From: Bordetella parapertussis
GTDB taxonomy: Bacteria > Pseudomonadota > Gammaproteobacteria > Burkholderiales > SG8-39
Assembly: GCA_945862265.1 (NCBI GenBank)
Contig: CAMAXP010000008.1
Span: forward strand, 543-64,542
Direction: 5' to 3'
DNA: 64,000 nucleotides
How positions within the stretch are numbered: position 1 is the stretch's first letter; every line of letters starts with the position of its first letter. The position numbers were made by a program, and so were the translations under genes. Shown here one piece after another: positions 3,236 to 55,534 of this stretch. The notes below the pieces were generated by a model. It did not search any database. It was not told where the DNA came from and saw only the letters and a program-made list of their open reading frames with translations.

Positions 3236-3670
3236 ATGCAAATCAAGGAAATCCTGCGGGTGAAGGGCACGCGTCTCCTGTCGATCGCCGTCGACGGGCG
3301 CGCGGCGGACGCGATAAAGATCATGGCCGAGGAGAATCTCGGCTCGCTGGTCGTGATGGAGGGTAGCCGGATGCTCGGCATGCTCACCTTCCACGAGATC
3401 CTGCAAGCGCTCCACAAAGGCAACGGCTCCCTAGGTGATGCCAGGGTCGGCGACATCATGGTGAAGGAACCGGTGACGGCCACGCCCGACATGGAAGTCA
3501 ACGACCTCCGGCGCACGATGCTCGAGAGCGGGGCACGCTACCTTCCCGTGCTGGAAGGCCGCGACCTCATCGGCGTGATTTCCTTTCGCGACGTGGCCAA
3601 GGCGGTGCTCGAGGAACAGGATTTCGAAAACCGCATGCTCAAGGGCTACATCAAGAATTGGCCTGCCTGA
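3236..3670 (+). CDS. CBS-domain pair protein
   Basis: 144-aa ORF with two CBS-like repeats (GSLVVMEGSRMLGMLTFHEIL and ARYLPVLEGRDLIGVISFRDV). AGGAGA lies upstream. Confidence 0.85.
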   Translation: MQIKEILRVKGTRLLSIAVDGRAADAIKIMAEENLGSLVVMEGSRMLGMLTFHEILQALHKGNGSLGDARVGDIMVKEPVTATPDMEVNDLRRTMLESGARYLPVLEGRDLIGVISFRDVAKAVLEEQDFENRMLKGYIKNWPA

Positions 3671-3686
3671 AGGCGCCGTCCCGTAG

Positions 3687-4958
3687 TTGAACCGGCGCGG
3701 CTTCTTCCTGTCGGGTGGCGCCGTGGCGGCTGGTGCGGCTGCGCTGGCCGCATGGCGCTTCTGGCCCGAGCAGGGATTGTGGAACCCATGCCTCGCACAC
3801 TTGCCGCGGCGGCTTGCGGACCATGAACTCGTCAAGGCGGCGTGGGAAGGCATCGATCCCTCGCGCGTGTGGGATTCGCACGCGCACCTCGTGGGCACCG
3901 GGGATTCGGCGAGCGGCATCCGGATCAACCCGCGCATGGAGAGCCTGCTCAACCCGGCCGAGTACGCGCGCCGGGTCTTCTTCCTCAATGCCGGATGCGC
4001 CCATCAGGCGCCCGGCGTAGACCAGGCCTACATCGAGCGCCTGGAAAACCTGATGGCGGGACTCGCCCCAGGCGCAAAGATCCTGCTGTTCGCGTTCGAG
4101 CGCACTTTCGACTCGCAGGGCGAGGTGCGGTGGGACCACACCGGGTTCTACGTGCCGGACGCGTATGTGCGCGATACGGCCGCGCGCTATCCGCGGATTT
4201 TCGAGTGGGTGGCCTCGGTGCATCCCTACCGGCGCGATTGCGTTGAAGCGCTGGAGGCCGCGAAGCGCGACGGCGCGCGCGGGGTCAAATGGCTTCCTTC
4301 GGCGATGGGGATCGATCCCGGCTCGCCCCTGTGCGACCGGTTCTATTCGGCGGCTGCGCGGCTCGACCTGCCGGTCATTTCGCACGCAGGACTCGAGCGC
4401 GCAGTAACAGGCTCCGACGTGCAGGACTACGGCAATCCGCTGAAACTGCGCCGTGCGCTGGACGCCAGCGTACGCGTTGTCGTTGCGCATTGCGCGTCGA
4501 TGGGGCAGGACCGCGACCTCGATCGCGGCGCAGACGGACCGCTCACGGACAGCTTCGAACTTTTCGCGCGGATGATGGGGGAGTCGCGTTATGTCGGCCG
4601 GCTCTTCGGCGACATTTCGGCGATGACGCAGACCAATCGCGCGGGGACTGCGCTTGCCCGGGTCATTCGCGCCGAAGAGTGGCAGGCGCGCCTGCTGAAC
4701 GGCTCGGACTATCCGCTGCCGGGCCTGATGCCGATCTTCTCGGTCGACTACCTGGTGTCGCTGGGATTGCTGGAGGCCTCGGCCGCATCCGTGCTGTCGG
4801 AGATCCGCCGCCACAACCCGCTGCTTTTCGATTTCGTCACGAAGCGGTCGCTGCGCGCCGGTGGCCGGGGCTTTGCCAAGGCGGTGTTCGAGACCCGCGG
4901 GTTCTTCGACAAGACAGCGCCCGCGACCGCATCTGCGACCGCATCCGCGAGCAGCTGA
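3687..4958 (+). CDS. Amidohydrolase-family metal-dependent hydrolase with twin-arginine signal
   Basis: TTG start. N-terminus (M)NRRGFFLSGGAVAAGAAALAA is Tat-like. WDSHAHLVG and later HAG/HCAS motifs fit TIM-barrel hydrolases. Confidence 0.7.
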   Translation: MNRRGFFLSGGAVAAGAAALAAWRFWPEQGLWNPCLAHLPRRLADHELVKAAWEGIDPSRVWDSHAHLVGTGDSASGIRINPRMESLLNPAEYARRVFFLNAGCAHQAPGVDQAYIERLENLMAGLAPGAKILLFAFERTFDSQGEVRWDHTGFYVPDAYVRDTAARYPRIFEWVASVHPYRRDCVEALEAAKRDGARGVKWLPSAMGIDPGSPLCDRFYSAAARLDLPVISHAGLERAVTGSDVQDYGNPLKLRRALDASVRVVVAHCASMGQDRDLDRGADGPLTDSFELFARMMGESRYVGRLFGDISAMTQTNRAGTALARVIRAEEWQARLLNGSDYPLPGLMPIFSVDYLVSLGLLEASAASVLSEIRRHNPLLFDFVTKRSLRAGGRGFAKAVFETRGFFDKTAPATASATASASS

Positions 4959-13731: not shown

Positions 13732-14487
13732 TTATTTCCCGAAACTGAAGGCGAGGCCCAGCCCGCGGTGCAGCGAGGCCTCCAGGAAAGGCGCCATCAG
13801 CGGCATGACCAGCACGAATGCGGCCATGCCGATGATGATGGTGGCGGGAAATCCGACAGCGAAGATGTTCAGCTGCGGCGCGGCGCGCGCAAGCACCCCC
13901 AGTGCGAGGTTCAGGATCAGCATGCTGGCGAGCACCGGCAGGGCGAGGTGCAGTCCCACCCTGAATATCTCGGCGCCAAGGAGCGCGAGGCCGTGCAGGC
14001 TGGCGGCCGATACCCCAGCCCCGCCGACCGGGATCACGCGGAAGCTCTCCGCGATCCCGGCGACCATCATCAGGTGGCCGTTGATGGCGAGGAACACCAG
14101 CATGGCCATCAGGTTCAGGAAACTCGCGATCAGCGGGGTCTCATGCGAGTTCTGCGGGTCGATGAACGAGGCGAACGACAGGCCCATCTGGAGACCTAGC
14201 AGGCTCCCTGCGATTTCGAAGGCCGCGAAGACGAGCTGCAATGCGAGGCCGATGGCGAGTCCCACCAGCAACTGCTGCACCAGCAGCCAGCCGGGCTCGC
14301 CGCTGACCGCAGGCAGCGAGGGTGCGACGATGAAGGTGACGAACGCGGCGAGCCCGATCTTCAGGCGGTGCGGGATGGCCTTGTGGTAGAGCAGCGGCGC
14401 CGAGGAGAACAGCGCGAGGACGCGTACGAACGGCCAGAAGTAAGCCGCAAACCAGACATCCAGCTGGGCGCTGGTGAACGAGATCAT
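13732..14487 (-). CDS. fliR: Flagellar export apparatus protein FliR
   Basis: Polytopic membrane protein starting MISFTSAQLDVWFAAYFWPFVRV. Last gene of the fliMNOPQR order. Confidence 0.9.
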   Translation of the reverse strand: MISFTSAQLDVWFAAYFWPFVRVLALFSSAPLLYHKAIPHRLKIGLAAFVTFIVAPSLPAVSGEPGWLLVQQLLVGLAIGLALQLVFAAFEIAGSLLGLQMGLSFASFIDPQNSHETPLIASFLNLMAMLVFLAINGHLMMVAGIAESFRVIPVGGAGVSAASLHGLALLGAEIFRVGLHLALPVLASMLILNLALGVLARAAPQLNIFAVGFPATIIIGMAAFVLVMPLMAPFLEASLHRGLGLAFSFGK

Positions 14488-14489
14488 CG

Positions 14490-14762
14490 CTAGCCGATGA
14501 CGTTGGGAATGGACGTCAGCGTGCGCTGGATGTAGTCGGTCAGCGTGGCGAGCATCCACGGCCCGGCCACGACCAGCGCGGCGACCATGGCGAGGAGCTT
14601 GGGGATGAACGACAGGGTCATCTCGTTGATCTGGGTGGCCGCCTGCAGCACGCTGACCGCGAGGCCCACCACCAGCGCGGTGACAAGCAGCGGCGCCGAG
14701 ACCATCAGCATCACCTCCAGCGCCTGCTGGCCGATGGTGAGCACGCTTTGCGAGGTCATCAT
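14490..14762 (-). CDS. fliQ: Flagellar export apparatus protein FliQ
   Basis: 90 aa, [26 protein letters not shown]... The ATGATGA overlaps the fliP stop. Confidence 0.93.
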
Positions 14763-15508
14763 CGCGCGAAACTCGCCACGAGCGAACCCACCAGCAGCGT
14801 CCAGCCGTCGGCGAGAACGAAGAGCATCAGCTTGAACGGCAGCGAGATCAGCACCGGCGAGAGCATCATCATGCCCATCGACATCAGCACGCTCGCGACC
14901 ACCATGTCGATGATCAGGAACGGGATGAACACCATGAACCCGATCTGGAACGCGGTCTTCAATTCGCTGGTGACAAAGGCCGGCACGACGATGTGGATCG
15001 GGGTGGAAGCCGCATCCTTGGGCATGGGCTCGTTGGCGAGCTTCAGGAACAGCGCCAGGTCCGGCTCGCGGGTCTGCTTCAGCATGAAGCCCTTGACCGG
15101 CGGTTCGGCGCGCACCAGCGCGTCGTTGAAGGTGATCTTGTTCTGGCTCCAAGGCAGGTAGGCGTCGACGTAGACTTTTTCCAGCACCGGGCTCATCACG
15201 TACATCGTGAGGAACAGCGCGAGCCCGACCAGCACCTGGTTGGGCGGCGTCGATTGCGTGCCGAGCGCGCTGCGCAGCAGCGACAGCACGATGATGATCC
15301 GCGTAAAGCCGGTCATCATCAGCAGCACCGCCGGCAGGAAGGTCAACGCGGTCAGCGCAACCAGTGTCTGGATCGACAGCGTGTACGACTGCCCGCCGCC
15401 CGGCGCGGGCGAGCTGCTGAATGCGGGCAGGCCCTGCGCCAGCGCTTCGGGCGCGAACGACGCCAGCGCGAGCAGGATGAACAGCAGGAGGGCCTTCGCC
15501 TTACGCAC
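14759..15508 (-). CDS. fliP: Flagellar export apparatus protein FliP
   Basis: Signal peptide plus the conserved [23 protein letters not shown]...PPNQVL motifs. Confidence 0.95.
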
Positions 15509-15836
15509 GGTTTATCGCCTTCTTCAGGAGAGCGGAAAAATCGATTCCCATGGGAGATGCAGCAACGCCTGCCGGTGCCTCGGGCAGTTCACCCTTGGGC
15601 AGGGTCGCGAGCGCGCTGACGCGGCCGGGGGCCACGCCGAGCACCATCCACTGGGTGCCCACCTCGACAATCACCACGCGTTCCTTGGCGCCGACGGAGA
15701 GCGCCGAAACGACCTTGAGCAGCCGCGCGCTGCCTCCCGCGCTCGCGCCCATGCGGCGCGCGAACCACGCCGAAGCCGCGATCGCGCCGAGCACGACCGC
15801 AAGGCCGGCCATCATCTGCAGGAGGCTGCCGCTCAT
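15501..15836 (-). CDS. fliO: Flagellar biosynthesis protein FliO
   Basis: 111 aa with a single N-terminal TM segment. Positioned between fliN and fliP. Confidence 0.75.
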
Positions 15837-15842: not shown

Positions 15843-16262
15843 TCAGCGGTTGAGTTTGCGGATGCGCTCGGACGGCGTGATGATGTCCGTGAGGCGGATG
15901 CCGAACTTCTCGTTGACCACGACCACCTCGCCCTGGGCGATCAGGCAGCCGTTGACCAGCACGTCCATCGGTTCGCCGGCGAGGCCGTCCAGCTCGACCA
16001 CGCTGCCCTGCGCCAGCTGCAGGATGTGCTTGATGGGAATCTTCGTGCGCCCCAGCTCCACGGTGAGCTGCACCGGGATGTCGAGGATCATGTCGATGTC
16101 GTGGTTCGCGTTGGCGCTGCCCGTCGGCGAGAGCTTCTCGAAGATCGGTGCGGCGTCGCCCGCGGGTGCGCCGCCGGCCTGGGCCTGCTCGGCGAGCGCC
16201 GCGCCCCAGTCGTCGGCCGCGTCGTCCTGGTGCGCCGGTTGTTCCTGGACTGCGTTTTCCAT
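15843..16262 (-). CDS. fliN: Flagellar motor switch protein FliN
   Basis: C-terminal SpoA/FliN domain (DIPVQLTVELGRTKIPIKHILQL...VNGCLIAQGEVVVV). The start was taken at MENAVQ, just after the fliM stop. Confidence 0.9.
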   Translation of the reverse strand: MENAVQEQPAHQDDAADDWGAALAEQAQAGGAPAGDAAPIFEKLSPTGSANANHDIDMILDIPVQLTVELGRTKIPIKHILQLAQGSVVELDGLAGEPMDVLVNGCLIAQGEVVVVNEKFGIRLTDIITPSERIRKLNR

Positions 16263-16264: not shown

Positions 16265-17275
16265 CTAATCTCCCAGCAGGTTGTCTTGCTGGCGGACCGC
16301 AAGGATGCGATCCACCTTGATTGCGTACTGCGCGTTCTGCGTTCCGTAGGTGCACTCGAACACCGGCACGCCGTCGACTTCCGCGACCACGGTCTTAGGG
16401 ATGTCGGTGCCGATCACGTCGCCGACCTTCATCGACAGGAGCTGCTCCACCGTCGACGGGATGCGCGCGAACTGCGCCACCAGCTCCACGTCGGCCAGCT
16501 GCACCTGCTTGGAGAGCATCCTCACCCAGCGCTTGTCGGGTTCGTAGCTGTCACCTTGCAGGGATGAATACAGCATGTCGCGGATCGGCTCGATCATCGA
16601 GTACGGCAGCACGATGTGCAGCTGGCCACCCGACTGGCCGATCTCGATGTTGAACGTCGCCGTGACCACGATCTCGGAGGGGGTGGCGATATTGGCGAAC
16701 TGGGTGTGCATCTCCGAGCGCACGTGCTCGAATTTCACCGGGTAGATCGTTTCCCAGGACTTCTCGTAGTACTCGAACACGACGCCGAGCATGCGCTGGA
16801 TGATGCGCTGCTCGGTGAGCGTGAAGTCGCGACCCTCGACGCGGCTGTGGAAGCGCCCGTCGCCGCCGAACATGTTGTCCACCACCGCGAACACCAGGCT
16901 CGGGTCGAAGATGAACAGGCACGAGCCGCGCAGTGGCTTCATGTGCACAACGTTCAGGTTGGTCGGCACCACCAGGTTGCGGATGAACTCGGAGTACTTG
17001 ACCACCTTCACCGGGCTCACCGAGATTTCCGGGCTGCGCCGCATGAAGTTGAACATCCCGATCCTCAGGAGTCGCGCAAACCGGTCGTTGATGATCTCGA
17101 GCGTCGGCATGCGGCCGCGCACGATGCGCTCCTGCTTGCCGAGGTTGCCCCACAGCCAGGAGCCCACGACCAGGGCGACCAGCAGCGCGGCGCCGAGCAT
17201 GAAGCCCAGCTTGTTGCGGCCGGGCATCTGGCCGAAGCCTTGGGCAAGGGAGGCAACGTCGACTGCATTGGCCAT
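16265..17275 (-). CDS. fliM: FliM-like switch protein carrying a FliF-like N-terminus (apparent fliF'-'fliM in-frame deletion hybrid)
   Basis: From about aa 47 (QERIVRGRMPTLEIINDRFARLLR...) it is collinear with FliM. The first ~42 aa (MPGRNKLGFMLGAALLVALVVGSWLW) look like the FliF N-terminal TM region. The CheY-P binding LSQxEIDALL motif is absent. Confidence 0.85.
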   Translation of the reverse strand: MANAVDVASLAQGFGQMPGRNKLGFMLGAALLVALVVGSWLWGNLGKQERIVRGRMPTLEIINDRFARLLRIGMFNFMRRSPEISVSPVKVVKYSEFIRNLVVPTNLNVVHMKPLRGSCLFIFDPSLVFAVVDNMFGGDGRFHSRVEGRDFTLTEQRIIQRMLGVVFEYYEKSWETIYPVKFEHVRSEMHTQFANIATPSEIVVTATFNIEIGQSGGQLHIVLPYSMIEPIRDMLYSSLQGDSYEPDKRWVRMLSKQVQLADVELVAQFARIPSTVEQLLSMKVGDVIGTDIPKTVVAEVDGVPVFECTYGTQNAQYAIKVDRILAVRQQDNLLGD

Positions 17276-17452
17276 GCACTTTCTCCGGAAACAATGCGGG
17301 TCCCGCTCTGTGCGGAACCTACGGAGAGAAGTATGCGGAGGGCTTGAGCGTCGCCATGCGCGAATAAGCCCTGCTTTTCCCGCCTATTTCAGGGGTGGCC
17401 GGGCGGGGGCGGCTGCTAAGCTGGGCACCAGTTCACATCCCAGGACGGTGCC

Positions 17453-17749
17453 ATGGACCCGATCTCGTTCAACCCCAATGTGCTCATGCCCGGCAAGGTC
17501 GCGGCAGCGGGCGTGGCGCCCGCGGGCGACGGGTTTTCCTCCGTGCTCAAGCAGGCCCTCGACGGGGTGAATTCGCAGCAGAAGGCGGCGGCAGGGCTGG
17601 CACGCGAATTCCAGCTCGACAACACCAACGTGAGCCTCGAAGAAACCATGGTGGCGATGCAGAAGGCCAACATCTCGTTCCAGGCCGTGGTGCAGGTCAG
17701 GAACAAGCTCGTGTCGGCCTACCAGGACATCATGAACATGCCGGTCTAG
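17453..17749 (+). CDS. fliE: Flagellar hook-basal body complex protein FliE
   Basis: 98 aa ending in the conserved FQAVVQVRNKLVSAYQDIMNMPV. Divergent from the fliF-derived start at 17275. Confidence 0.9.
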   Translation: MDPISFNPNVLMPGKVAAAGVAPAGDGFSSVLKQALDGVNSQQKAAAGLAREFQLDNTNVSLEETMVAMQKANISFQAVVQVRNKLVSAYQDIMNMPV

Positions 17750-18489
17750 GTCCTCAGGCGCCGGTCGCGCTCCTTCTGGGCGATGTAGCGCGAGATCAGG
17801 GATTCCATGTCGCGCTCGAGCCCCGCGAACCTGCACCCGATCCTCACCTGGCGGGCGCCATTGCGGGCGCGCACTTCGCAGACGTTCTTGACCTCGATGT
17901 CGAGCGCGAGGACGCCGAGCGTACCGAGCCCCATCCGGCAGTTCTGCAGGATTTCGCCGGGCGCGAATTTCACGTAGGTCTTGTCGGTGATCAGCGCCAC
18001 GCCGCCGAGCGACAGGTCGGACACCCGCATTTCCAGCACGCGCACCTTGCCTTCGCATTCCACTGCCGCCTCGCAGGTGAGGCTGGCCGGCACCCGGTAA
18101 TAGTCCCTGCGCTGCAGGCGCAGCACGAGGTCGGGCAGGCGCATGCGCAGGGCCGGGTGTCCTTCGAACACGGTCGGGTCCGCGCCGCGCGAACTGAACT
18201 GGACCTTGATGCCGTCGATGTTCGCCGCCAGGGTCACCCGTTCGGCCTGCATCACCCTGCGGTTGCTCTCCGCCTCCCGGCCGCAATCGAATACGATCTC
18301 CTCGTAGTCCGGGTTTACCGCGAGGAGCACGGTCAGCGCATGGGTCTCGCCATCGACGCTCAGTGTGACCTGCTCGCGCTTCGCCTCCAGCCGGCGCAGG
18401 ATGGAGATGATCTCGAATCGGTCGTGGACGAGGAATCGCTCGAAATCCTCCTCGGCGAGTTCCGGGCCACGCAGGGTGCTGGTTGTCAT
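17746..18489 (-). CDS. ycgR: Flagellar brake protein YcgR (PilZN + PilZ c-di-GMP receptor)
   Basis: RLQRRDYYRV...DLSLGGVAL matches the PilZ RxxxR / D-x-S-x-x-G motifs. The start was taken at MTTSTLRG. Confidence 0.8.
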   Translation of the reverse strand: MTTSTLRGPELAEEDFERFLVHDRFEIISILRRLEAKREQVTLSVDGETHALTVLLAVNPDYEEIVFDCGREAESNRRVMQAERVTLAANIDGIKVQFSSRGADPTVFEGHPALRMRLPDLVLRLQRRDYYRVPASLTCEAAVECEGKVRVLEMRVSDLSLGGVALITDKTYVKFAPGEILQNCRMGLGTLGVLALDIEVKNVCEVRARNGARQVRIGCRFAGLERDMESLISRYIAQKERDRRLRT

Positions 18490-18779
18490 TCGGCTTCCTC
18501 CTTCATTCCGGACTCGATGCGATGCAGCCACGCGAGCAGCTCGGCCACCGCCACATACAGTTCGGGCGGGATGTGGCGGTCGAGGTCGACCTGCATCAGC
18601 AACCCGACGAGTTCGCGGGATTCGTGCACGTACACCCCGGCGTCGCGGGCGCGCCGGATGATTTCATCCGCGATCAGCCCGCGCCCCTTGGCGGACACGC
18701 GCGGGGCGCCCTTCCCGCCGGGGTAGGCGAGCGCGACCGCGGAGCGGGCCGGGTCAGCGGTGCTTTGGAAGTGCGCCAT
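18486..18779 (-). CDS. Stand-alone FlhB C-terminal-domain-like protein (EscU/YscU/HrcU family)
   Basis: About 97 aa, AVALAYPGGKGAPRVSAKGRGLIADEIIRRARDAGVYVHESRELVGLL...IPPELYVAVAELLAWL, typical of the small FlhB-domain proteins found downstream of fliK-like genes. Confidence 0.75.
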   Translation of the reverse strand: MAHFQSTADPARSAVALAYPGGKGAPRVSAKGRGLIADEIIRRARDAGVYVHESRELVGLLMQVDLDRHIPPELYVAVAELLAWLHRIESGMKEEAE

Positions 18780-19521
18780 GATCGACCCTGGCTTCCGCCA
18801 GCGTGAGTCCCTGCTGGCCCAGCGAGTGGGCGAGATCGCCGCGTGCGTCGAGAATCCTGCCTGCACTGGCCTGGTCGGCGGCGTGGATCGCGAGCCGCGC
18901 CTGTCGCCCACTGAGCGCCACGCGGGCCTCGATTTCGCCCAGCCCGGGCATGGTCAGGCGCAGCGACGCCTGCCAGGCCGGGGCTGCGTCAAGGGTCGTG
19001 CCATCGCTGTGCGGCTCTTCCTCTGCAATGCGTACTTCCACCGGCTGTCCGGGCCAGGCCTGGCCCTGCCACAGCGCCGCGCGGTTCTCCAGCACGTCGA
19101 GCTGGCGCTGTACCAGGGTTTCCGCCTGTGGCGCGAGCGGCGAATGCGGCGCGGCCGGCCGCGCCAGCGCAGCCTGGGGTTCGCGCAGCAGGCTTTCCTT
19201 TGCGCCCGCACCGTCCACCCAGTCGGCGAGGTGCGATTCGTAGAAGAGCCCGCTCGTGCCGATCGCGACCCTGAGCCCGGCCGCGACCCGGGCTGCATTG
19301 CCGGGCTGGTCCGACAGCGGCACCGGCGTGGTGATGGCTGCGAACTCCCCGCCATCAGCTGCGGCCGATGTGGCGAGGCGCGAGAGCATCTGCGCGGTGG
19401 AGCCCAGCTCCAGGTCCACAGCGGGCTCGCTCGAGAGGAGCAGCGCCGTGGCCTCCCGCCGCTCGGGAACCCACTGCGCCATGGCCTGGGCGCGCAAAAG
19501 TGAGATGGCCTCGCCGTTCAC
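18754..19521 (-). CDS. Flagellar hook-length control (FliK-like) protein, short form
   Basis: 255 aa with a C-terminal Flg_hook-like segment (LRLTMPGLGEIEARVALSGRQARLAIHA...LGQQGLTLAE). GTG start overlapping the fliT stop. Confidence 0.6.
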   Translation of the reverse strand: MNGEAISLLRAQAMAQWVPERREATALLLSSEPAVDLELGSTAQMLSRLATSAAADGGEFAAITTPVPLSDQPGNAARVAAGLRVAIGTSGLFYESHLADWVDGAGAKESLLREPQAALARPAAPHSPLAPQAETLVQRQLDVLENRAALWQGQAWPGQPVEVRIAEEEPHSDGTTLDAAPAWQASLRLTMPGLGEIEARVALSGRQARLAIHAADQASAGRILDARGDLAHSLGQQGLTLAEARVDHGALPKHR

Positions 19522-19853
19522 GGCTGGCTACCGTAACTCTCGCCGAGCCTGCGATGGTTTTCCGAGGTCGCCAGCGTGTCCTGCAGACGCATCATCCACG
19601 GTTCGGCGAGATCGCGGATCTGCGCGTCGTCCGACAGCATCTTGCGCAGCAGGACGAGCTTGCGGGCGCGCTCGGCCGCAGAGAGGTTGGCCTGCGCGCG
19701 GGTCTGCAGGTCCGCGACCAGGTCGCGGCAGCGCTTCTCTTCCGCAATGAAGCGGTCCCAGTCGCTCTCCCTGGCAGCGCCGAGCATCTGGCCGGAGATC
19801 TCGGCCATGGCCTCGTAACCGGCAAGCGGATCACGTTCGATGCCTGCGGTCAC
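19518..19853 (-). CDS. fliT: Flagellar chaperone FliT-like protein
   Basis: 111 aa and predicted helical. Sits after fliS, and its GTG start at 19853 overlaps the fliS stop (GTGA). Confidence 0.55.
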   Translation of the reverse strand: MTAGIERDPLAGYEAMAEISGQMLGAARESDWDRFIAEEKRCRDLVADLQTRAQANLSAAERARKLVLLRKMLSDDAQIRDLAEPWMMRLQDTLATSENHRRLGESYGSQP

Positions 19854-20269
19854 GCCGCGCGCTCCTTGGCGATCTCCGCCCAGGCCTGGCGCAGTTCGCG
19901 CAGCAGGCCGGAAACCTCGTCGAGGACGGCGGGATCGTTCTTCAGGTTGGCCAGCACGATGCGCCGGCACATGTAGGCATAGAGTTCCCTGAGTTGCGCG
20001 GCCACGCCGCCGCCGTCCGCCTCGTTGAGGCTGGCCATCAGCCCCTCGTCGAGGATCTGCAGCGCATGCGAGAGCGCCGCGCCCTTGGCGGCGATTTCGC
20101 GCCGCTCCATGTGCCCGCGGGCATTGGTCAGGCACTTGAGCACGCCGTCGTACAGCATCAGCACGAGTCCGAGCGCGTCCGCCGAGGCGACGCCCGTCTC
20201 TAGGCCGACCCGGGCGTAGGCCTGGGCGGCATTCTGGGCGGAGGTGAACGGATTGGCATACCAGGTCAT
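19850..20269 (-). CDS. fliS: Flagellin-specific chaperone FliS
   Basis: AYARVGLETGVASADALGLVLMLYDG...I fits the FliS four-helix family. Synteny supports the call. Confidence 0.9.
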   Translation of the reverse strand: MTWYANPFTSAQNAAQAYARVGLETGVASADALGLVLMLYDGVLKCLTNARGHMERREIAAKGAALSHALQILDEGLMASLNEADGGGVAAQLRELYAYMCRRIVLANLKNDPAVLDEVSGLLRELRQAWAEIAKERAA

Positions 20270-20311
20270 GACGGGGTTTCCTGTTGTCTGCAGCGCTTGC
20301 GCCTGCGGTGC

Positions 20312-22291
20312 TTACTTCTGTGAATTCAGCTTGCTCAGTGCATCCAGTTGCTGGCTCAGGAAGCTGCTCGTGTTCTGCATCGAGGTCATGGTCTTGTCGA
20401 GCGCGATGAATTGGGCGCGCATCGCCGCTTCCACGCCTGTCATGCGTTGCGCGAAGGCTGCGCGCCGGTGGGCAAGGTCCGAGATGGAGGACTGGATGCC
20501 AGAGGTCCGCGCGGCCAGCGGGCCGGTAAGCATGCTGTTGACCAGCGTGTTTAGACTATCGGCCACGCCACGGGAAAAGTTGAGCGTGCCGCGCGCGCCG
20601 GTCACGCCTCCGGTGATCCCCACGGTGAGGCCCTTGGCGGTCAGGGTCTGGCCGGCCCCGGTCGCGGCGACGCCGCCGAGGGTGCCGGCGGCGTCCTGGC
20701 CCGCGCTGCTTGCCGGCGTGCCGAGGACGTCCGCCACGGCCGTCCCGCCCGTGACCGATACCGTGGCGTTGGAACCCCAGCGCCTGGACGTGAGCGTGAG
20801 CACGCCCCCGGAGGCGGATGCTTCGATGCCGTTGCCTGCCGCGACGAGGGCGGCGCTGCCATTGACGCGTGACTGGACCATCGCCGCAAGCGAAGTCGCC
20901 GTGTAGGTGCCGGCGGTGAGCGTTACGCTGGCGGTGATGCCGTCTACCGACAGGTCCAGGGTGTCATTGGCGCCGGCGGTGATCGTGAGCGCTGCGGGCG
21001 CCGATCCGACGGCGGCCCCGTGGGTGGCGAGCTGGCTGACGGTCAGGGCGTAGCTGCCGGCCACGGCGCTGGTGCCGGCCGAACCGAAGGTCACGAGGCT
21101 GTCGCTGGGAGTGCCGACCGCTGCAAATACGCTGGCCGCATCCTTGGCGGGGTCGGCCAGGGCGGCATTCAGCTTGGTGGAGTTGATCACCAGCGAACCG
21201 TCCTTCTGGAAGGCGATGCCGATTTCGGACAACGAGCCGTATCCCGTCGAGTTCGCCACGGTGGTGCCAATCGTGGCGCGCAGGCGCGCCTGCAGGCTGC
21301 GTACGGTCGAGTCTCCCTGCAGCACGGCGCCGGTCTTGGTCTCGGCGTTGTAGGCCGAGAGCGAACTGAGCATCGAATTCGCCGTGTTGTAGGCGGACAC
21401 GAAGGATTGCACGGCCGCAGCGGCGGACGCGGTGTTGCGCGCCACGGTTACGGTGGTCGACGTGCCGGGCGATGCCTTGGCGAGATTCAGCGTGACGCCT
21501 TCGATCGCGCCGCTGAGGGAATTGGTCGCGCTGGTGACGGTGATGCCGTTGACCACCGCCTTCGCATCCTGGGCGACCGTCGCCTGGGTGAGGTTCGCCG
21601 TGCCCCCGGTGCTCGCGTCGTAGGCGAGCGCCGACAGCCCGGCGGTGTCGGTGTTGTCGAGGTCTGCGTCCACGACGCTGATGCGCATTGCGCCGGAGGC
21701 TCCGGTGTATTGCGAGGCGAGCACCAGGCGTTGGCCGCTGCCGTCATTGACGATGCTTGCTGTTACTCCCGCCTTGGCGGCATTGATCGCGTCACGCACG
21801 CCGGACAGCGAATCCTGGCCCGCGCCGATGGTGATGGTCGCGGACGGTTTCGAGGCGTCCGCGCTGAACGCGCCACCAGAATAGGCGCCGAAGTCGATGG
21901 TCAAAGTTCCGCTGCCCACGGTCGTGAGCGTCGAGGCATAGGGGGAGGAGGCGAGGGACTGCGCCTGCGCGAGCTTTTGCACTTCGAGGGCATAGGTCCC
22001 CGCGGCCGTGCCGGCGGAGGCTGAGGCGCTGGCGAGGCTCGAGTCGGCCACGGTGGCGCTCACTCCACGCAGCACTTGTAAGCCGGAGAGCGAGCCGGCT
22101 GCGGACTGCAGCGTCGCGAGCGCGCTGCTCACCTGCCCGTAGGCCGAAAGCTTGGCCTTGAAATCCGCCGTCTTGTTGTCCATCAGCGTCTCGGGCTGGC
22201 GCTCGATGCTCATCAGCTTGGTGACCAGGGAGCTGACGTCCAGTCCCGAGCCGATGCCGGTCGAGGAGATCGCCGTGGAGGAGGTCGCCAT
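20312..22291 (-). CDS. fliD: Flagellar filament cap protein FliD
   Basis: 659 aa. N-terminus ISSTGIGSGLDVSSLVTKLMSIERQP and C-terminus AMRAQFIALDKTMTSMQNTSSFLSQQL. Confidence 0.9.
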   Translation of the reverse strand: MATSSTAISSTGIGSGLDVSSLVTKLMSIERQPETLMDNKTADFKAKLSAYGQVSSALATLQSAAGSLSGLQVLRGVSATVADSSLASASASAGTAAGTYALEVQKLAQAQSLASSPYASTLTTVGSGTLTIDFGAYSGGAFSADASKPSATITIGAGQDSLSGVRDAINAAKAGVTASIVNDGSGQRLVLASQYTGASGAMRISVVDADLDNTDTAGLSALAYDASTGGTANLTQATVAQDAKAVVNGITVTSATNSLSGAIEGVTLNLAKASPGTSTTVTVARNTASAAAAVQSFVSAYNTANSMLSSLSAYNAETKTGAVLQGDSTVRSLQARLRATIGTTVANSTGYGSLSEIGIAFQKDGSLVINSTKLNAALADPAKDAASVFAAVGTPSDSLVTFGSAGTSAVAGSYALTVSQLATHGAAVGSAPAALTITAGANDTLDLSVDGITASVTLTAGTYTATSLAAMVQSRVNGSAALVAAGNGIEASASGGVLTLTSRRWGSNATVSVTGGTAVADVLGTPASSAGQDAAGTLGGVAATGAGQTLTAKGLTVGITGGVTGARGTLNFSRGVADSLNTLVNSMLTGPLAARTSGIQSSISDLAHRRAAFAQRMTGVEAAMRAQFIALDKTMTSMQNTSSFLSQQLDALSKLNSQK

Positions 22292-22292
22292 C

Positions 22293-22634
22293 TCAGGCCT
22301 TCGCGTTCACGAGCAGGCCCTGCACCCTGTCGAGGGCGCGCGCGATCGAGAGCATCTCCTTGCTCGGGATCTGGCGCAGCACCTCGTTGGTCTCCTTGTC
22401 GACCAACCTGACGATCGTGGAGCCGGTGGATTCCTCCACGCTGAACTGCAGCCCGCGCGCCATGGGATCGAGCATTTCGTTCACCGCGCTGATGGCGCGC
22501 TCGAGGTCCTTGATGCTGACGGCCGGCAAACCGGGCTCGGCCGCATGCGCGGCCGGGGCGGCCGGCGAGTCTGCGCTCCTGCGCTGCGGCACCGGGGCCG
22601 GCGCGCTGGCTTCACCTAGGGTGCGAATCGACAT
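22293..22634 (-). CDS. flaG: FlaG-family flagellar protein
   Basis: 113 aa, LQFSVEESTGSTIVRLVDKETNEVLRQIPSKEML. Confidence 0.8.
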   Translation of the reverse strand: MSIRTLGEASAPAPVPQRRSADSPAAPAAHAAEPGLPAVSIKDLERAISAVNEMLDPMARGLQFSVEESTGSTIVRLVDKETNEVLRQIPSKEMLSIARALDRVQGLLVNAKA

Positions 22635-22685
22635 GGTCTTGGCTCACTCTCCGTTTCAGCTGCCCGCTGGTCCGCAACGGGCAGG

Positions 22686-22733
22686 AAAAACGGCCGTGCG
22701 GCCGATCGGGGTCTTACCCTTTGGGCCGCACGG
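22686..22733 (-). terminator. Rho-independent terminator downstream of fliC
   Basis: On the minus strand: CCGTGCGGCC, a 20-nt loop, GGCCGCACGG, then CCGTTTTT. That is a perfect 10-bp G+C-rich stem followed by a T5 run. Confidence 0.6.
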
Positions 22734-22747
22734 TCACGGGGGGGCGG

Positions 22748-23929
22748 TTAGCCGCGGAGCAGCGCGAGCACCGAGTTCGGCAGCGAGTTCGCCTGGGCGA
22801 GCATCGCGGTACCGGCCTGCTGCAGGATGTTGGCGCGGGTCAGCGAGGCCGAGGCGGCCGCGTAGTCCGTGTCCTGGATCGCCGATTGCGCGGCGGTCAG
22901 GTTTTGCGAGGTGCTCTGCGCGTTCGAGGCTGCAGTCGTCAGGCGGTTCTGCACCGCGCCGATCGTCGCACGCTCGTTGCTGAAGTAGTCCAGCGCGCCG
23001 TCGACCTGCGACATCAGGGCCGTCGCGTTGGTCTGCGAGGAGGTGCCCGTGAAGTTCGTGATTGCGGTGGCAAGTGCGGCGAGCGAGCCGGCGGACGAGA
23101 CACGCATGTCGGCGAACGACAGGCTGACCTGGTCGCTGGCGGTCGTGCCGGCGCCGACCTGCAGCGTGACGGCGCCCGAGCCTGCGGTGGTCTTGATGGT
23201 GTTGGTGTCGATTGCGGCACCGATCAGGTCGGAGGTGTCGCCGGCCACCGAGGAGAGCGAGAACTTCACGCCGAGTTGGTCGAAGTTGAGCGTCCTCGTG
23301 CTGTTGGCGGCCACACCGCCCACGAACGCGACCGTCTGGCTCACGGTGCCGTCGCTCAGGGTCAGCGCGTTGTCGCCGGCGGTGTACGCGGCGATCGTGA
23401 ACGTCTTGCCACCCTTGGCCGCCGAGACGTCGATCGAGGTCACCGAAGCGGCGCCGGCGGCGAAGCCCGTGCCGATCGTGCCGGTGACGTCGAGGGTCGT
23501 GGACAGCGCGCCGGTGAGCAGGCTCTGGCCGTTGAACTTGGTGCTGTTGCCGATCGCGTCCATCTCGGTCTTGAGCTGGCCGACTTCCGTTGCGATGTAG
23601 CCGCGGTCGGTGTCGGAGATCGTGCCGTTGGCGGCCTGCGTGCCCAGTTCCTTCATGCGCTGGAGCATGTTCTGGATCTGGCTCATCCCGCCTTCAGCGG
23701 TCTGCAGCATCGAGATGCCGTCGTTGGCGTTGCGCACGGCCTGGTTCAGGCTCGAGACCTGGGCGGACATCCGCTGGGACACCGCTAGGCCGGCCGCGTC
23801 GTCTTTGGCCGAGTTGATGCGCAGGCCGGAGGACAGCTGGGCCATCGCGTTGGTCTGCGCGCCCTGGGATTTCGTGAGGTTGAACTGCGCCATCAGCGAG
23901 TTCATGTTGGTGTTGATGGACATTGTCAT
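22748..23929 (-). CDS. fliC: Flagellin
   Basis: MTMSINTNMNSLMAQFNLTKSQ...LSSGLRINSAKDDAAGLA and C-terminal ILQQAGTAMLAQANSLPNSVLALLRG. Confidence 0.95.
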   Translation of the reverse strand: MTMSINTNMNSLMAQFNLTKSQGAQTNAMAQLSSGLRINSAKDDAAGLAVSQRMSAQVSSLNQAVRNANDGISMLQTAEGGMSQIQNMLQRMKELGTQAANGTISDTDRGYIATEVGQLKTEMDAIGNSTKFNGQSLLTGALSTTLDVTGTIGTGFAAGAASVTSIDVSAAKGGKTFTIAAYTAGDNALTLSDGTVSQTVAFVGGVAANSTRTLNFDQLGVKFSLSSVAGDTSDLIGAAIDTNTIKTTAGSGAVTLQVGAGTTASDQVSLSFADMRVSSAGSLAALATAITNFTGTSSQTNATALMSQVDGALDYFSNERATIGAVQNRLTTAASNAQSTSQNLTAAQSAIQDTDYAAASASLTRANILQQAGTAMLAQANSLPNSVLALLRG

Positions 23930-24045
23930 TTTGAAATCTCCTGAAGCGTTGGTTGGCTGATTCCGGCCCGGGGGAGGGTTCCGGTGACTTTGGTTCTCCC
24001 CGTCTGATCCGTTTGAGGACGAGATTTGAACCGCCGTTGAGGGCC

Positions 24046-24073
24046 TTATCGGGCTCCCCTCCGGAAAACTTTA
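24046..24073 (-). promoter_or_regulatory. Putative sigma-28 (FliA) class III promoter of fliC
   Basis: The minus strand reads CTAAAGTTTTCCGGAGGGGAGCCCGATAAG, compared with the consensus TAAAGTTT-N11-GCCGATAA. It lies about 120 nt upstream of the fliC ATG. Confidence 0.55.
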
Positions 24074-24316
24074 GCCCCCTGTGACTTTCCCAGCGCTGTG
24101 CACGAGAGGCAGGTTAGCAACGCGCAGCCCTCGCCCAGTGGCTGATAAGAGGGAGGAACGGGCGCCTATTCCGCACGGTAGTCCGGCTGACGTAAGAAGA
24201 CTTCCTACAAAATTTTCAGCGTTTTCCTGATTGTCGGACCCGCCCGGCGGGCAGAAGATTCGGGCGTACCAAGAAACAACCAGTCAACGCTGATTCTTTT
24301 ACTTCGGGGGAAGAAA

Positions 24317-24631
24317 ATGAATACGGAAACGATGCTCGACGAAATCCGCGACGCCAACCTCACCTACCTGATGCTGGCCCAGGCCCTGATCCGCAAGGAC
24401 CGCGCGCAGGCCCTGTTCCGCCTCGGACTGTCCGAGGAAGTCGCCGACGTGGTGGCCGGCCTTTCCGCCGCGCAGATCCTCAAGATTGCCGCGTCCAATA
24501 TGGTGATGTGCCGGTTCCGGTTCGACGACCAGGTGGTCTGGAACCTGCTGACCAGCCATGGCCGCGACAAGGAAGTGTCGGGTGTGCACGCGGCGATCCT
24601 CATGGCCGGCCGACTCGCGCAAGCCGCCTAA
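24317..24631 (+). CDS. flhD: Flagellar master regulator FlhD
   Basis: LDEIRDANLTYLMLAQALIRKD...AASNMVMCRFRFDD is the FlhD signature. Confidence 0.93.
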   Translation: MNTETMLDEIRDANLTYLMLAQALIRKDRAQALFRLGLSEEVADVVAGLSAAQILKIAASNMVMCRFRFDDQVVWNLLTSHGRDKEVSGVHAAILMAGRLAQAA

Positions 24632-25170
24632 TGGCAAAGGGAAAGAGCATCGTCGGCGAAAGCCGCGACATCGGCAGGGCGGTCGAGCTGATCAAGCTGG
24701 GCGCCCGCCTGCAGGTCCTCGAGTCGGAGACCAGGCTTTCGCGCGAGCGATTGCTGCGCCTCTATAAGGAAGTGCAGGGCAAGTCGCCACCCAAGGGCAT
24801 GCTGCCGTTCTCGACCGACTGGTTCATGACCTGGCAGCCGAACGTCCACAGCTCGCTTTTCATGAACATCTACAGCTTTCTCGACAAGACTACCGAACTC
24901 GATGAAATCGACGCGATCATCAAGGCCTACCAGTTGTACCTGGAGCAGGCCGGTTCGCATGGCCTGGAGACCGTGTTGTCGGTGACCCGGGCCTGGCGCC
25001 TGGTGAAGTTCTTCGATGCGGGCATGCTGACGACCGTGCCGTGTACCAAGTGCGGTGGCCACTTCGTGGCCCACACGATGGACCTGCACGACCATTTCGT
25101 CTGCGGCCTGTGCAACATGCCTTCCCGCGCCGGCAAGACCCGCGCGGCGGCGGAAAGACGGGCTGCTTAG
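24631..25170 (+). CDS. flhC: Flagellar master regulator FlhC
   Basis: KSIVGESRDIGRAVELIKLGARLQVLESET... plus a C-terminal Cys4 zinc site (CTKCGGHFV...VCGLC). TAATG overlap with flhD. Confidence 0.93.
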   Translation: MAKGKSIVGESRDIGRAVELIKLGARLQVLESETRLSRERLLRLYKEVQGKSPPKGMLPFSTDWFMTWQPNVHSSLFMNIYSFLDKTTELDEIDAIIKAYQLYLEQAGSHGLETVLSVTRAWRLVKFFDAGMLTTVPCTKCGGHFVAHTMDLHDHFVCGLCNMPSRAGKTRAAAERRAA

Positions 25171-25376: not shown

Positions 25377-26339
25377 ATGCTGATCATCATTGGATACCTC
25401 ATCGTCATCGGGTCCGTCTTCGGGGGGTATGCGCTGGCGGGCGGGCACCTGGCTGCGCTGATGCAGCCGCTCGAGCTGCTCATGATCGGCGGCGCCGCGG
25501 TGGGCGCGTTCCTGGTCGGCAATCCCGTGAAGACGCTCAAGGCGACCTTCAAGGCACTGCCGTCGATGCTGAAGGGCTCCAAGTACACCAAGGCGCTGTA
25601 CATGGAGCTGATGGCACTGCTCTACGAAATCCTCACCAAGGTGAGGAAGGAAGGGCTGATGTCGATCGAGGGGGACATCGAGGCGGTGCATGAGAGCCCC
25701 CTGTTCAACAAGTACCCGGACATCGTTGCCGACCACCACCTCGTCGAGTTCCTGACCGACTACCTGCGCCTGATCGTCTCGGGGAACCTGAACCCGATGG
25801 AGATCGAGAACCTGATGGACAACGAGATCGACACGCACCACCACGAAGGCAACATCCCGGCCCAGGCGATCCAGAAGGTCGGCGACGGCCTGCCCGCGTT
25901 CGGCATCGTCGCGGCGGTGATGGGTGTGGTGCACACCATGGGCTCGGTGGGCCTGGACACGACCAACATCCGCTTTCTCGTGGTGGACGATTTCTCCACC
26001 ATGCGCCGCATCGTGAGGAACCTCCTCAAGGAGATCGGCCACGCCAACGTAGACGAGGCCGAGGACGGCCAGGTTGCGCTGAACAAGCTGAAGGCGAATG
26101 CCTTCGACTTCGTCGTGTCGGACATCAACATGCCGAACATGAACGGCTTCGAGCTGCTGCGCAACATCCGCGAGGACGTGGCCCTGAAGAAGCTGCCGGT
26201 GCTGCTGGTGACGGCCGAAGCCAAGAAGGAGGACATCATCCTTGCCGCGCAGATCGGCGCGTCCGGCTATATCGTCAAACCCTTCACCAAGGCGACCCTC
26301 GAAGAGAAACTCGCCAAGATCCTCGCAAAGGCAGCCTGA
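25377..26339 (+). CDS. Hybrid ORF: MotA N-terminal ~190 aa fused in frame to an essentially complete CheY receiver domain
   Basis: aa 1-192 match MotA ([25 protein letters not shown]...[17 protein letters not shown]). From [22 protein letters not shown]...[11 protein letters not shown]...[10 protein letters not shown]...[19 protein letters not shown] the sequence is CheY. MotA TM3/TM4 are missing. Confidence 0.85.
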
Positions 26340-26340: not shown

Positions 26341-26811
26341 ATGGGCAATGCAGCCGAATTGGATGACCTCGAGGCCCTGTTCGACCAGGTGGCCGCCGAG
26401 ACCCGCGCAGCGCAGGCCGTCCCTGCGCCCGTGACCGAATCCGTCCCTGCCACCGGCGCCGCGCCAGCCAACGAATCCGCTCATGATATTTGCGCAGTCC
26501 CCACCGTTGCACCGGGCGAGGATCAAATCTTCCACCGGGTCGGCCACCTCACTCGCACGCTGCACGATGCGCTGCGGGAACTGGGCTACGACCGCAATCT
26601 CGAGAGCGCCGTGCAGGGCCTGCCTGACGCGCGTGACCGGCTCAATTACATTGCCACCCTGACCGGCCAGGCCGCTGACCGTGCCCTGTCGGCGGTCGAG
26701 TATGGGCAGGAAATCCAGAAGGCCCAGCTGGGCGTGACCGAATCGCGCATCTGCCAGTTGCATACCCAGGCGGTGGCGCGCCTGCGCACCAGGATGAAGG
26801 AGTGGTCGTGA
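26341..26811 (+). CDS. Hybrid ORF: CheZ N-terminal ~120 aa fused in frame to the last ~30 aa of sigma-28 FliA
   Basis: IFHRVGHLTRTLHDALRELGYD...LPDARDRLNYIATLTGQAADRALSAVE matches CheZ. The C-terminal LGVTESRICQLHTQAVARLRTRMKEW matches the FliA region 4.2 HTH end. Confidence 0.72.
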   Translation: MGNAAELDDLEALFDQVAAETRAAQAVPAPVTESVPATGAAPANESAHDICAVPTVAPGEDQIFHRVGHLTRTLHDALRELGYDRNLESAVQGLPDARDRLNYIATLTGQAADRALSAVEYGQEIQKAQLGVTESRICQLHTQAVARLRTRMKEWS

Positions 26812-26812: not shown

Positions 26813-27988
26813 ATGGCACTGATCGGGTTGGCGTCGCTCGCGCGCATGGCCTTTTCCGGCGCGGACCTCGCGCCGATCGGGGCGCAGCTGCTTGCTCGCG
26901 CGGCCGAGGATCCGGAGGATGCCGATGCGCTGATGGACATGTCCGCCGTGCTGCACCTGCGCGGCAATCGAGACCTGGGGCTCGCGCTTCAGGCGCAGGC
27001 GCTGGACCTGCGGCAGGTGTACCGCGTCGGCACAGGCGAGGGGCTGAAGGTCCTGGTGCTGGTCAGCCCGGGCGACCTGGCCGAGAACAACGTGCTGGAG
27101 TTCCTGCTCGAAGAATCGAGCGTTACGCTCGAGATGCTGTATGTGTCGATCGACCTCCCGCTGCCTTCGCCGTTGCCGGAACATGACCTCGCCTTCGTCG
27201 CCGTGTGCGAGACGGACCTCAACCGGCCGCTGCTCAGGCACCTGGAAGGCGTGCTGGCGCACTGGCCGCACCCGGTGCTCAACCGCCCGGGGCGGATTGC
27301 GCGGCTCTCGCGCGATGGCGCTTGCGCCGTACTGGGGGCGGTGCCTGGGGCGTACATCCCGACCACCGTGCGGGTCGATCGCACCGCGCTGGCGCGGATA
27401 GGCGAAGGCGCGTCGATCAAGGCCTTCTTCGGAGGCGGTTACCCGGTCATCGCCCGGCCCGTCGATTCGCACAAGGGGCAGGGGCTCGCCAGGCTGGAAG
27501 ATCCAGCGTCGGTGCTCGACTACCTGGTCGATCGTCCAGAAACCTTCTTCTACCTGTCGCCCTTCGTTGACTACCAGTGCGCCGACGGGCAGTACCGGAA
27601 ATACCGAATCGTCTTCATCGAAGGGCGCCCTTACGCCTGCCACATGGCGATCTCGTCCAACTGGATGGTGCACTACATGAGCGCGGGCATGGCCGCGAGC
27701 GCCACCAAGCGCGCCGAGGAACAGCGCTTCATGGAGGACTTCGATATCCATTTCGCGTTGCGGCACCGCGAGGCCCTGGCCGCGCTGAGCGACCGGCTCG
27801 GACTGGAGTATGTCGGGATCGACTGCGGGGAGACGCCGGAAGGCAAGCTGCTGATCTTCGAAGTCGACAGCGGCATGACGGTGCACGCGATGGACGGGGT
27901 GGATGTGTTCCCGTACAAGCAGGTGCAGATGAAGAAGGTGTTCCGGGCGTTCCGGGAGATGCTCGAAGCCCGCCTCAGTCGCCCTTGA
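26813..27988 (+). CDS. ATP-grasp (RimK/glutathione-synthetase-like) domain protein with helical N-terminal region
   Basis: The C-terminal half (PVIARPVDSHKGQGL...YRKYRIVFIEGRPYACHMAIS...EYVGIDCGE..GKLLIFEVDSGM) resembles ATP-grasp ligases. Confidence 0.65.
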   Translation: MALIGLASLARMAFSGADLAPIGAQLLARAAEDPEDADALMDMSAVLHLRGNRDLGLALQAQALDLRQVYRVGTGEGLKVLVLVSPGDLAENNVLEFLLEESSVTLEMLYVSIDLPLPSPLPEHDLAFVAVCETDLNRPLLRHLEGVLAHWPHPVLNRPGRIARLSRDGACAVLGAVPGAYIPTTVRVDRTALARIGEGASIKAFFGGGYPVIARPVDSHKGQGLARLEDPASVLDYLVDRPETFFYLSPFVDYQCADGQYRKYRIVFIEGRPYACHMAISSNWMVHYMSAGMAASATKRAEEQRFMEDFDIHFALRHREALAALSDRLGLEYVGIDCGETPEGKLLIFEVDSGMTVHAMDGVDVFPYKQVQMKKVFRAFREMLEARLSRP

Positions 27989-45293: not shown

Positions 45294-45309
45294 CCGGGAT
45301 GGGCGGCGC

Positions 45310-46557: not shown

Positions 46558-46566
46558 GCGACCACG

Positions 46567-49976
<3,410 letters not shown>

Positions 49977-49980
<4 letters not shown>

Positions 49981-51933: not shown

Positions 51934-52185
51934 ATTTGGAAGAATGTTTTGGAAAGTCCGCTCTGGGAGGGGGTTTCCGAGGTATTTTTTGTCGGTACCA
52001 GTACATTTACTCCTAAATTCTGATTGACATCCTGCCGTCTTTCTGTCGGAGGCGGTGATCGGGGGAAGTGCATGCCTGCGCGGGGATTGTGGTTTCCGGC
52101 AAGCAGGCATAAGGTGCTGAATGCATGGACAGTTGAAGTTGAGGGTGCGAATCTAAAAGTGAGATGCGAGCGGGGTTCAGGGAGC

Positions 52186-52218
52186 GTCAACTAAAAAATG
52201 TCATCTAAAAATGTCAAC
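52186..52218 (+). repeat. A-tract direct repeats upstream of the orphan nuclease-like gene
   Basis: GTCAACTAAAAAATGTCATCTAAAAATGTCAAC: two CTAAAAA(A)TGTCA units flanked by GTCAAC, 30-60 nt upstream of the ATG at 52248. Confidence 0.35.
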
Positions 52219-52247
52219 CAAATCTAGTTAGCAAGCAGAAGAATCCG

Positions 52248-53374: not shown

Positions 53375-53475
53375 GGCAGGGATGGGCGGCCCGGCGAGGG
53401 CCGCCCCGCGGCCTCGGATAAACGGCCTGTCGCCGGTCGCTGGACAGCTATACTCCTTAGGCGTACAGTACCCGG

Positions 53476-54088: not shown

Positions 54089-54104
54089 AAGTGGGGGATT
54101 AAAC

Positions 54105-54392: not shown

Positions 54393-54442
54393 GGAAACCG
54401 AAGACGAAATTCACATCATCTCCATGCGAAAAGCGGAACTCC

Positions 54443-54724: not shown

Positions 54725-54772
54725 GGTATTCGCGATCGGTAACTCGACGATGACGAGTTCAGGAAGAGGCCA

Positions 54773-55090: not shown

Positions 55091-55102
55091 AGAGGTGGGG
55101 CT

Positions 55103-55522: not shown

Positions 55523-55534
55523 CGGGAGACTCCG

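Follow-up and report, generated by a model that had tools for sequence, protein, structure and literature searches.

A fliF'-'fliM hybrid gene as the probable scar of a recent deletion in the flagellar cluster of an uncultured Burkholderiales bacterium

The open reading frame (ORF) divergent from fliE in the window (the whole 64-kb stretch of DNA that was analysed) consists of the start of fliF fused in frame to most of fliM. We propose, with high confidence, that this ORF is the scar of a recent microhomology-mediated deletion of about 6.9 kb in fliFGHIJKLMNOPQR and a non-functional remnant of motility loss. The strain is an uncultured soil/sludge Burkholderiales (a betaproteobacterium), and strains of the same species found elsewhere keep the cluster intact; the organism stands near the GTDB genus SZAS-79, family SG8-39 (16S 'MND1') (PMC13460031). 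The fliF'-'fliM ORF is one of three scars in a wider loss and not an isolated event. Beyond the fliF'-'fliM hybrid described in an earlier, sequence-only reading of this DNA, there are two further deletions, motA'-'cheY and cheZ'-'fliA, whose hybrids (hybrids 2 and 3) sit 8-9 kb away in the same strain. In total, about 18 kb has been cut from the flagellar cluster in three clean in-frame deletions.

The hybrid ORF and its two parents

The features of the fliF'-'fliM locus are (method in brackets):

13732-14487 (-): fliR, intact (gene call and Pfam)
14490-14762 (-): fliQ, intact (gene call and Pfam)
14759-15508 (-): fliP, intact (gene call and Pfam)
15501-15836 (-): fliO, intact (gene call and Pfam)
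15843-16262 (-): fliN, intact (gene call and Pfam)
16265..17275 (-): fliF'-'fliM hybrid ORF, 336 aa (ORF list, Pfam, TIGR01397)
16265..17146 (-): fliM-derived segment, orthologue codons 38-330 (alignment to P0001-P0004; blastn against L093/L095)
17146..17147: junction of deletion 1, with 2-nt microhomology, TG on the + strand and CA on the coding strand
17147..17275 (-): fliF-derived segment, codons 1-43, cytoplasmic N-terminus and first transmembrane helix, TM1 (identity to intact FliF; hydropathy)
17276..17452: fliE-fliF divergent intergenic (promoter) region, intact (comparison with the undeleted alleles L089-L092)
17453..17749 (+): fliE, intact (Pfam FliE; same protein on deleted and intact contigs)

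The hybrid joins residues 1-43 of FliF to residues 38-330 of FliM with the frame kept. Residues 46/47-325 score as FliM (Pfam FliM and FliMN_C): PF02154 matches at 241.5 bits (cut-off 27), PF01052 at 61 bits (cut-off 23.8) and TIGR01397 at 302.3 bits (cut-off 219.6), the last over profile positions 39-317 of 320. Both the middle domain and the FliN-like C-terminal domain are therefore present with scores above the curated cut-offs, while the N-terminal CheY-P binding peptide (LSQxEIDALL type, in about the first 16 residues of a FliM) is absent, as are, within the 64-kb window, fliG and any fliF beyond the 43-codon remnant, the genes that accompany a fliM and provide what its product docks on. 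Over the part that aligns, the nearest FliM orthologues are 98-99% identical to the hybrid; they start with the canonical CheY-P docking N-terminus MGKEFLSQEEVDALLKGVTGE… and carry MGKEFLSQEEVDALLKG where the hybrid has FliF residues 1-43; in close contigs the normal motif reads LSQEEVDALL, and in L093 and L095 fliL is followed by a full 330-aa fliM. The docking role of this motif is described in PMC7355467. According to the sequence-only reading, FliM sets in at about residue 40 and its docking motif is lost; the alignments refine the start to about residue 38 of the orthologue and place FliF residues 1-43 where the motif should be. Since the hybrid clears the FliM equivalog cut-off, it would be given a normal FliM name in annotation, which calls for caution.

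The first 43 residues (MANAVDVASLAQGFGQMPGRNKLGFMLGAALLVALVVGSWLWG) show 100% amino acid identity to the start of the full-length or 5'-partial FliF encoded on three short metagenome contigs (L089, L090 and L092) found by exact-sequence look-up with the FliE of the window. At the DNA level, the fliF remnant differs from conspecific fliF by 1 mismatch in 130 nt. The FliF of these three contigs continues normally past residue 43 (…WLWG followed by TTPEYKVLYSNIADRDGG…). Together with the Pfam and TIGR01397 matches, this identity confirms that the ORF is an in-frame fliF'-'fliM hybrid, and the hydropathy profile (Kyte-Doolittle 19-residue peak of 2.24 at aa 23-41) bears out the earlier description of its beginning as a FliF N-terminus with a charged stretch and a transmembrane helix. 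Only codons 1-43 of fliF are retained, without the periplasmic ring-building domains and the C-terminal FliG-binding tail; Pfam detected no match to PF01514 or PF08345 in the hybrid, and both are present in the intact 526-aa FliF of L177 (from NCBI assembly GCA_046153485.1) and L178. On a further contig, L091 (1-124), fliF gives way beyond residue ~103 to 124 nt without a match among the sequences compared; a further rearrangement or a chimeric end of the scaffold may account for this, and L091 was left out of the evidence.

A relative whose FliM is 86% identical (L002) shows the ancestral order, ycgR-fliE<->fliFGHIJKLMNOPQR. Here the 43 residues match, with 65% identity, the start of a 530-aa ORF divergent from fliE, which is followed by ORFs at the expected positions of fliG, fliH, fliI, fliK and fliL, and then by fliM. 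L177 and L178 stand much closer to the window, with an identical FlhC and 98.3% nucleotide identity overall; the FliF start of both also aligns with residues 1-43, and their 526-aa FliF, with YscJ_FliF domains, is followed by fliG and fliH. Their gene order is fliH-fliG-fliF<->fliE...fliC<->flhDC-motAB-cheV-cheY-cheZ-cheA-flhB-flhA-flhF, and the order flhG-fliA-orf391 is seen in L190.

A complete ORF with a GC3 of 0.91 and a full FliM core might also be read as a genuine FliM variant of this lineage that carries a membrane anchor, fliF-L being encoded elsewhere. We give this hardly any credence: the 43 residues and the region upstream of them are the conspecific fliF start (99% nucleotide identity), relatives carry this N-terminus on a real FliF, and synteny places fliF-L originally at this locus. 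A search of 5.8 billion proteins returned no FliM-type match for residues 1-43 among the best 120 homologues listed, which are ordinary FliM proteins (nearly all of 325-343 aa, with a few fragments of 256-301 aa) and cover 75-90% of the query. Likewise, the N-terminus occurs on FliM in none of the best 80 genome loci, all of which match residues 44-336 only, bar one that matches from residue 47.

The junction and the lost interval

The junction lies between G43 and N44, fliF-side alignments ending at 17146 and fliM-side alignments beginning at 17147, within the range (nt ~17135-17150, aa 43-47) that the sequence-only reading had given. On the coding strand, the fliF parent reads …TGGCTGTGGGGCAccacc…, the fliM parent …cgcccctaCAACCTCGGC… and the window …TGGCTGTGGGGCAACCTCGGC…, and the dinucleotide CA is all that the two parents share at this point; alignment to the FliF and FliM of relatives, proposed earlier as a check, thus both pinned the junction and revealed a 2-nt microhomology. 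The junction peptides of the hybrids include …SWLWGNLGK and …EIQKAQLGVTESR.

When L177, L189 and L095 are chained, the deleted interval comes to about 6.9 kb; it held the rest of fliF, fliG, fliH, fliI, fliJ, fliK, fliL and the first 37 codons of fliM. The absence of these genes from the locus, noted earlier, extends to the 64-kb window, in which tblastn with the proteins of a relative found no FliF, FliG, FliH, FliI, FliK or FliL elsewhere, nor did Pfam detect fliF-L over all plausible ORFs. Consistent with a chimeric ORF, the parents are intact and separate in relatives, there is a single collinear junction, and the intervening genes are gone.

Seven contigs, recovered from several samples by two assembly pipelines, encode exactly this 336-aa hybrid protein. 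MEGAHIT contigs of ERZ27280278, -265 and -263 match the window at 100% identity with the exception of L176, which has 2 mismatches in 20.5 kb (99.99% identity), and Logan contigs of ERR3719153, -154 and -160 are identical to it. A mis-join at 17146/17147, which the sequence-only reading had named as a caveat, appears very unlikely, because an overlap of 2 nt cannot mislead an assembler and the junction recurs on the seven contigs. The more general explanation, that reads of fliF and fliM were combined into a chimeric contig by an artefact of assembly or binning, draws on the metagenomic source and on pseudo-lesions in other contigs of the species that were runs of N. We consider it most improbable: no runs of N were found near the junction in the contigs carrying the hybrid, the 2 shared nucleotides are far below what misleads a k=141 assembler, and the junctions of hybrids 2 and 3 recur across contigs in the same way. 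Scaffold gaps can pass for pseudogenes when metagenome contigs are looked up; a 'split motA' in L180 (4890-4900) and a 'truncated cheZ' in L182 (6392-6491) were rejected as pseudogenes, each being a run of N in the scaffold.

Two further deletions and the state of the retained genes

Compared with intact conspecific contigs, the cluster has exactly three discontinuities. The features that concern the other two, and the genes retained between them and fliE, are:

17746..25170: ycgR, flhB-CTD-like, fliK-like, fliT, fliS, fliD, flaG, fliC, flhD and flhC, retained and intact (Pfam, gene calls)
25377..26339 (+): hybrid 2, MotA 1-193 fused in frame to CheY 2-128 (Pfam MotA_N, partial MotA_ExbB, Response_reg)
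26341..26811 (+): hybrid 3, CheZ 1-129 followed by the last 27 residues of FliA (Pfam CheZ 2-76 of 203, weak Sigma70_r4)

The junction of hybrid 2 is at 25954/25955, where the microhomology is the TG of a motA CTG codon and of the cheY ATG. Relative to L177 the deletion measures 2243 bp; lost with it are the last third of MotA, the whole of MotB, and CheV. Intact motA-motB-cheV-cheY is present in L177-L183. In hybrid 3 the junction is at 26727/26728, the 2 shared nucleotides are GC, and the FliA part, LGVTESRICQLHTQAVARLRTRMKEWS (sigma-28 region 4.2), is fused in frame. About 8.5 kb were lost in this case, with the 3' part of cheZ, cheA, a 56-aa ORF, flhB, flhA, flhF, flhG and most of fliA; cheZ-cheA-flhB-flhA-flhF is intact in L177, and flhG-fliA-orf391 in L190/L189. 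Exact-protein look-ups revealed no intermediates with one or two of the three deletions, and contigs that are long enough carry the deletions together.

One nucleotide lies between hybrids 2 and 3, and one between hybrid 3 and the downstream orf391; because the fusions are in frame, translational coupling is maintained throughout the operon. orf391 (26813-27988, + strand) encodes a 391-aa protein with no Pfam match, whose distant homologues are named RimK-type ATP-grasp ligase in some sources. It starts 1 nt past the fliA stop in intact strains and 1 nt past cheZ'-'fliA here, and homologues at ~60% identity are widespread outside flagellar contexts.

The microhomology is exactly 2 nt at each of the three junctions. 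A random junction is estimated to have at least 2 nt in ~19% of cases (per-base match probability 0.276), and three out of three exceeds the chance expectation. With only 2 nt in common at each junction, homologous recombination between repeats is excluded. The pattern fits microhomology-mediated illegitimate recombination, for instance replication slippage or end joining. In deletion 1, codon 43 of fliF and codon 38 of fliM were brought together on the 2-nt overlap, and the frame happens to be kept.

What remains of the cluster is well preserved. The sequence-only reading had taken fliN, fliO, fliP, fliQ and fliR to be intact, and their lengths are indeed those found in the undeleted L093/L095. 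The segment 17146-18430 is 99.4-99.7% identical to the undeleted alleles L089-L092, and the retained genes as a whole show 98.3-99.7% nucleotide identity to intact alleles. Codon changes private to the window amount to 46 synonymous and 10 non-synonymous ones, against 182 and 52 among intact alleles (Fisher p = 0.59); there is accordingly no signal of relaxed selection in the retained flagellar genes, the substitutions being too few to say more than 'recent'. No private codon changes were found in fliC, flhD and flhC, nor any private frameshifts or stops in the retained genes. The high identity and the lack of decay indicate that the deletions are recent and that the decay of the remaining genes has not yet begun.

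Between ycgR and fliT (18486-19482, - strand), a 97-aa protein consisting only of an FlhB C-terminal domain overlaps a FliK-like (Flg_hook) protein of 242 aa; L002 and L177 share this pair, which is distinct from canonical flhB and fliK. No further flagellar genes were detected elsewhere in the 64-kb window, the flanks of which hold housekeeping and transport genes. An OEP outer-membrane factor, an HlyD-type adaptor and a C39-peptidase ABC exporter (43929-49980, + strand) form a type I secretion/bacteriocin export set; the exporter ORF is listed at 1137 aa, its domain matches end near aa 690, and it overlaps the next ORF, so that the listed end is provisional. A UvrA-like ABC ATPase ORF (37718-43387, - strand) of 1887-1889 aa has about twice the length of canonical UvrA. 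The stretch 52000-56200, with a G+C of 0.59-0.62 compared to ~0.66 elsewhere, may be a small acquired island; its genes encode an Xre-type HTH protein, a DsrE-like protein and an ankyrin-repeat protein of 205 aa.

Two other conspecific contigs provide leads, each lesion having been seen on one contig only. L189 (ENA ERZ18668966 scaffold, 3600-4300, no Ns), which represents a further lineage of the species, carries an in-frame 645-bp fliG deletion with a 7-nt microhomology and a 116-aa product, and in addition a ~20-kb deletion from the 3' part of fliF to mid-flhF that removes fliE through flhA. In L184 (1-2660), the gene of a 386-aa transposase (HTH_38 and rve) directly adjoins a 5'-truncated flhD (43-aa remnant), which may represent an independent knock-out of the master regulator. 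If real, these lesions indicate repeated independent loss of motility in the species.

Consequences of the deletions and comparison with known systems

The combined losses comprise the MS ring, FliG, the FliHIJ ATPase complex, FliK, FliL, MotB, CheV, CheA, FlhA, FlhB, FlhF, FlhG and nearly all of sigma-28. Without FliF and FliG there is no rotor, without FliHIJ and FlhA/B no export, without MotB no stator, and without sigma-28 no late-gene expression. We infer that this cluster no longer allows the strain to assemble or turn a flagellum; the absence of the genes holds for the 64-kb window, and a second set, or a relocated fliF-L, may exist elsewhere in the genome.

The hybrid and fliN-R are probably still transcribed, as FlhDC and the fliE-fliF promoter region are intact; transcription of the hybrid would start from the FlhDC-dependent fliF promoter. 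In the predicted product, TM1 of FliF would tether the FliM core to the membrane or lead to its mis-insertion there. The helix is oriented from cytoplasm to periplasm in FliF itself; the residues that flank it in the hybrid are more basic on the C-terminal than on the N-terminal side (K47, R50, R53 and R55 compared to R20 and K22), and the topology is therefore uncertain. Whichever predicted topology holds, the FliM core would have nothing to assemble on and would not bind CheY-P. With no MS ring or FliG for docking and no CheY-P binding peptide, the hybrid appears to be a by-product rather than a working part.

That three deletions struck one cluster in a short time suggests that the loss was favoured and not neutral. 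Selection probably favoured flagellar loss, which might operate through the cost of flagella, a sessile/floc lifestyle, or flagellum-dependent phage or predators.

The reading frame deserves separate consideration. The frame is kept in each of the window's three deletions (chance 1/27), and with the independent 645-bp fliG deletion of L189 the count is four of four (1/81); a pure 'random scar' model does not predict an all-in-frame pattern, which with four events amounts to a hint. The hybrids might then not be neutral scars, either because frame-preserving deletions were selected or because the hybrid proteins gained a use. In the first case, continuous translation may avoid Rho-dependent polarity or lost coupling on fliN-R and on cheZ'-fliA'-orf391, and the single-nucleotide spacing of hybrid 2, hybrid 3 and orf391, which leads to coupled translation, is in line with this. 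In the second, membrane-tethered FliM or membrane-tethered CheY hybrids may have acquired a use, to which the retention of the whole CheY domain (2-128) and the whole FliM core lends some colour.

Much speaks against selection of the frame or a use for the hybrids, and we regard either as unlikely. The sample is four events; FliG, the FliF ring and CheA, which any known role of FliM or CheY requires, have been lost; FliN-R have no evident purpose without FlhA and FlhB; and the hybrids bear no sign of adaptive change. Moreover, in the flagellar hierarchies of enterobacteria and Burkholderiales, the motA promoter, which would serve hybrids 2 and 3, depends on sigma-28, and with the loss of the latter it is probably silent. 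We likewise doubt that frame-preserving deletion is a selected mode of operon pruning, in which ribosomes are kept on the mRNA and polarity or toxic truncated membrane proteins are avoided; if it were, the combination of 3/3 (4/4) in-frame events with 2-nt microhomologies would be a signature of selection and not of chance. A residual regulatory role of tethered FliM or CheY hybrids is a further reading of low probability. A non-functional scar of a recent deletion remains our preferred explanation of the fliF'-'fliM ORF.

The deleted and intact alleles, more than 98% identical, segregate among environmental samples and offer a snapshot of the first steps of flagellar loss, with breakpoints resolved to the base and secondary decay absent; ERZ27280286 and -328, for example, contain the intact type. 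The junctions may serve as a marker to distinguish motile from non-motile strains of an uncultured, widespread soil/sludge lineage, and as an example of microhomology-mediated deletion in the wild. They leave the knowledge of flagella unchanged and add a new case of a known type of event.

The switch fusions of Salmonella studied by Francis et al. in 1992 and Kihara et al. in 1996 reportedly arose as spontaneous mutants. In-frame fusions of FliF to FliG (full-length and deletion) and of FliM to FliN in this organism have been reviewed (PMC7355467). Similarly to these, the fliF'-'fliM hybrid is in frame, was made by deletion within one operon, and joins an N-terminal part of FliF to a C-ring protein. 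The Salmonella fusions, however, link adjacent genes, retain almost all of both proteins and give working or partly working motors, whereas here 43 FliF residues are left, seven intervening genes are lost, FliG is gone and no motor function seems possible. A functional fusion of the FliF-FliG type is not what is found: the ring domains, FliG, FliH, FliI, FliJ, FlhA, FlhB and MotB are absent.

A closer parallel in the mode of origin is offered by the chimeric ORFs Rv2623/28, Rv0071/74 and ppe38/71, which derive from multigene deletions in M. tuberculosis; there, too, the breakpoints lie inside distal genes, the frame is restored, the promoter is that of the upstream gene, and the chimeras segregate among strains (PMC7671302). 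They concern another organism and other genes, and some of them have been shown to be expressed or functional, whereas the products of the hybrids described here are predicted. Deletions and IS insertions in flagellar regulons are a well-known route to motility loss (PMC7677240, PMC5100188, PMC12888815, PMC2374995). The present case resembles the losses in Shigella, in experimental evolution of Campylobacter, in E. coli flhDC mutants and in Acidovorax (flhC) in that inactivation took place within a motile species, often in parallel; unlike them, it shows the process close to its outset, in an environmental population that is uncultured, with three clean microhomology deletions and no point-mutational decay.
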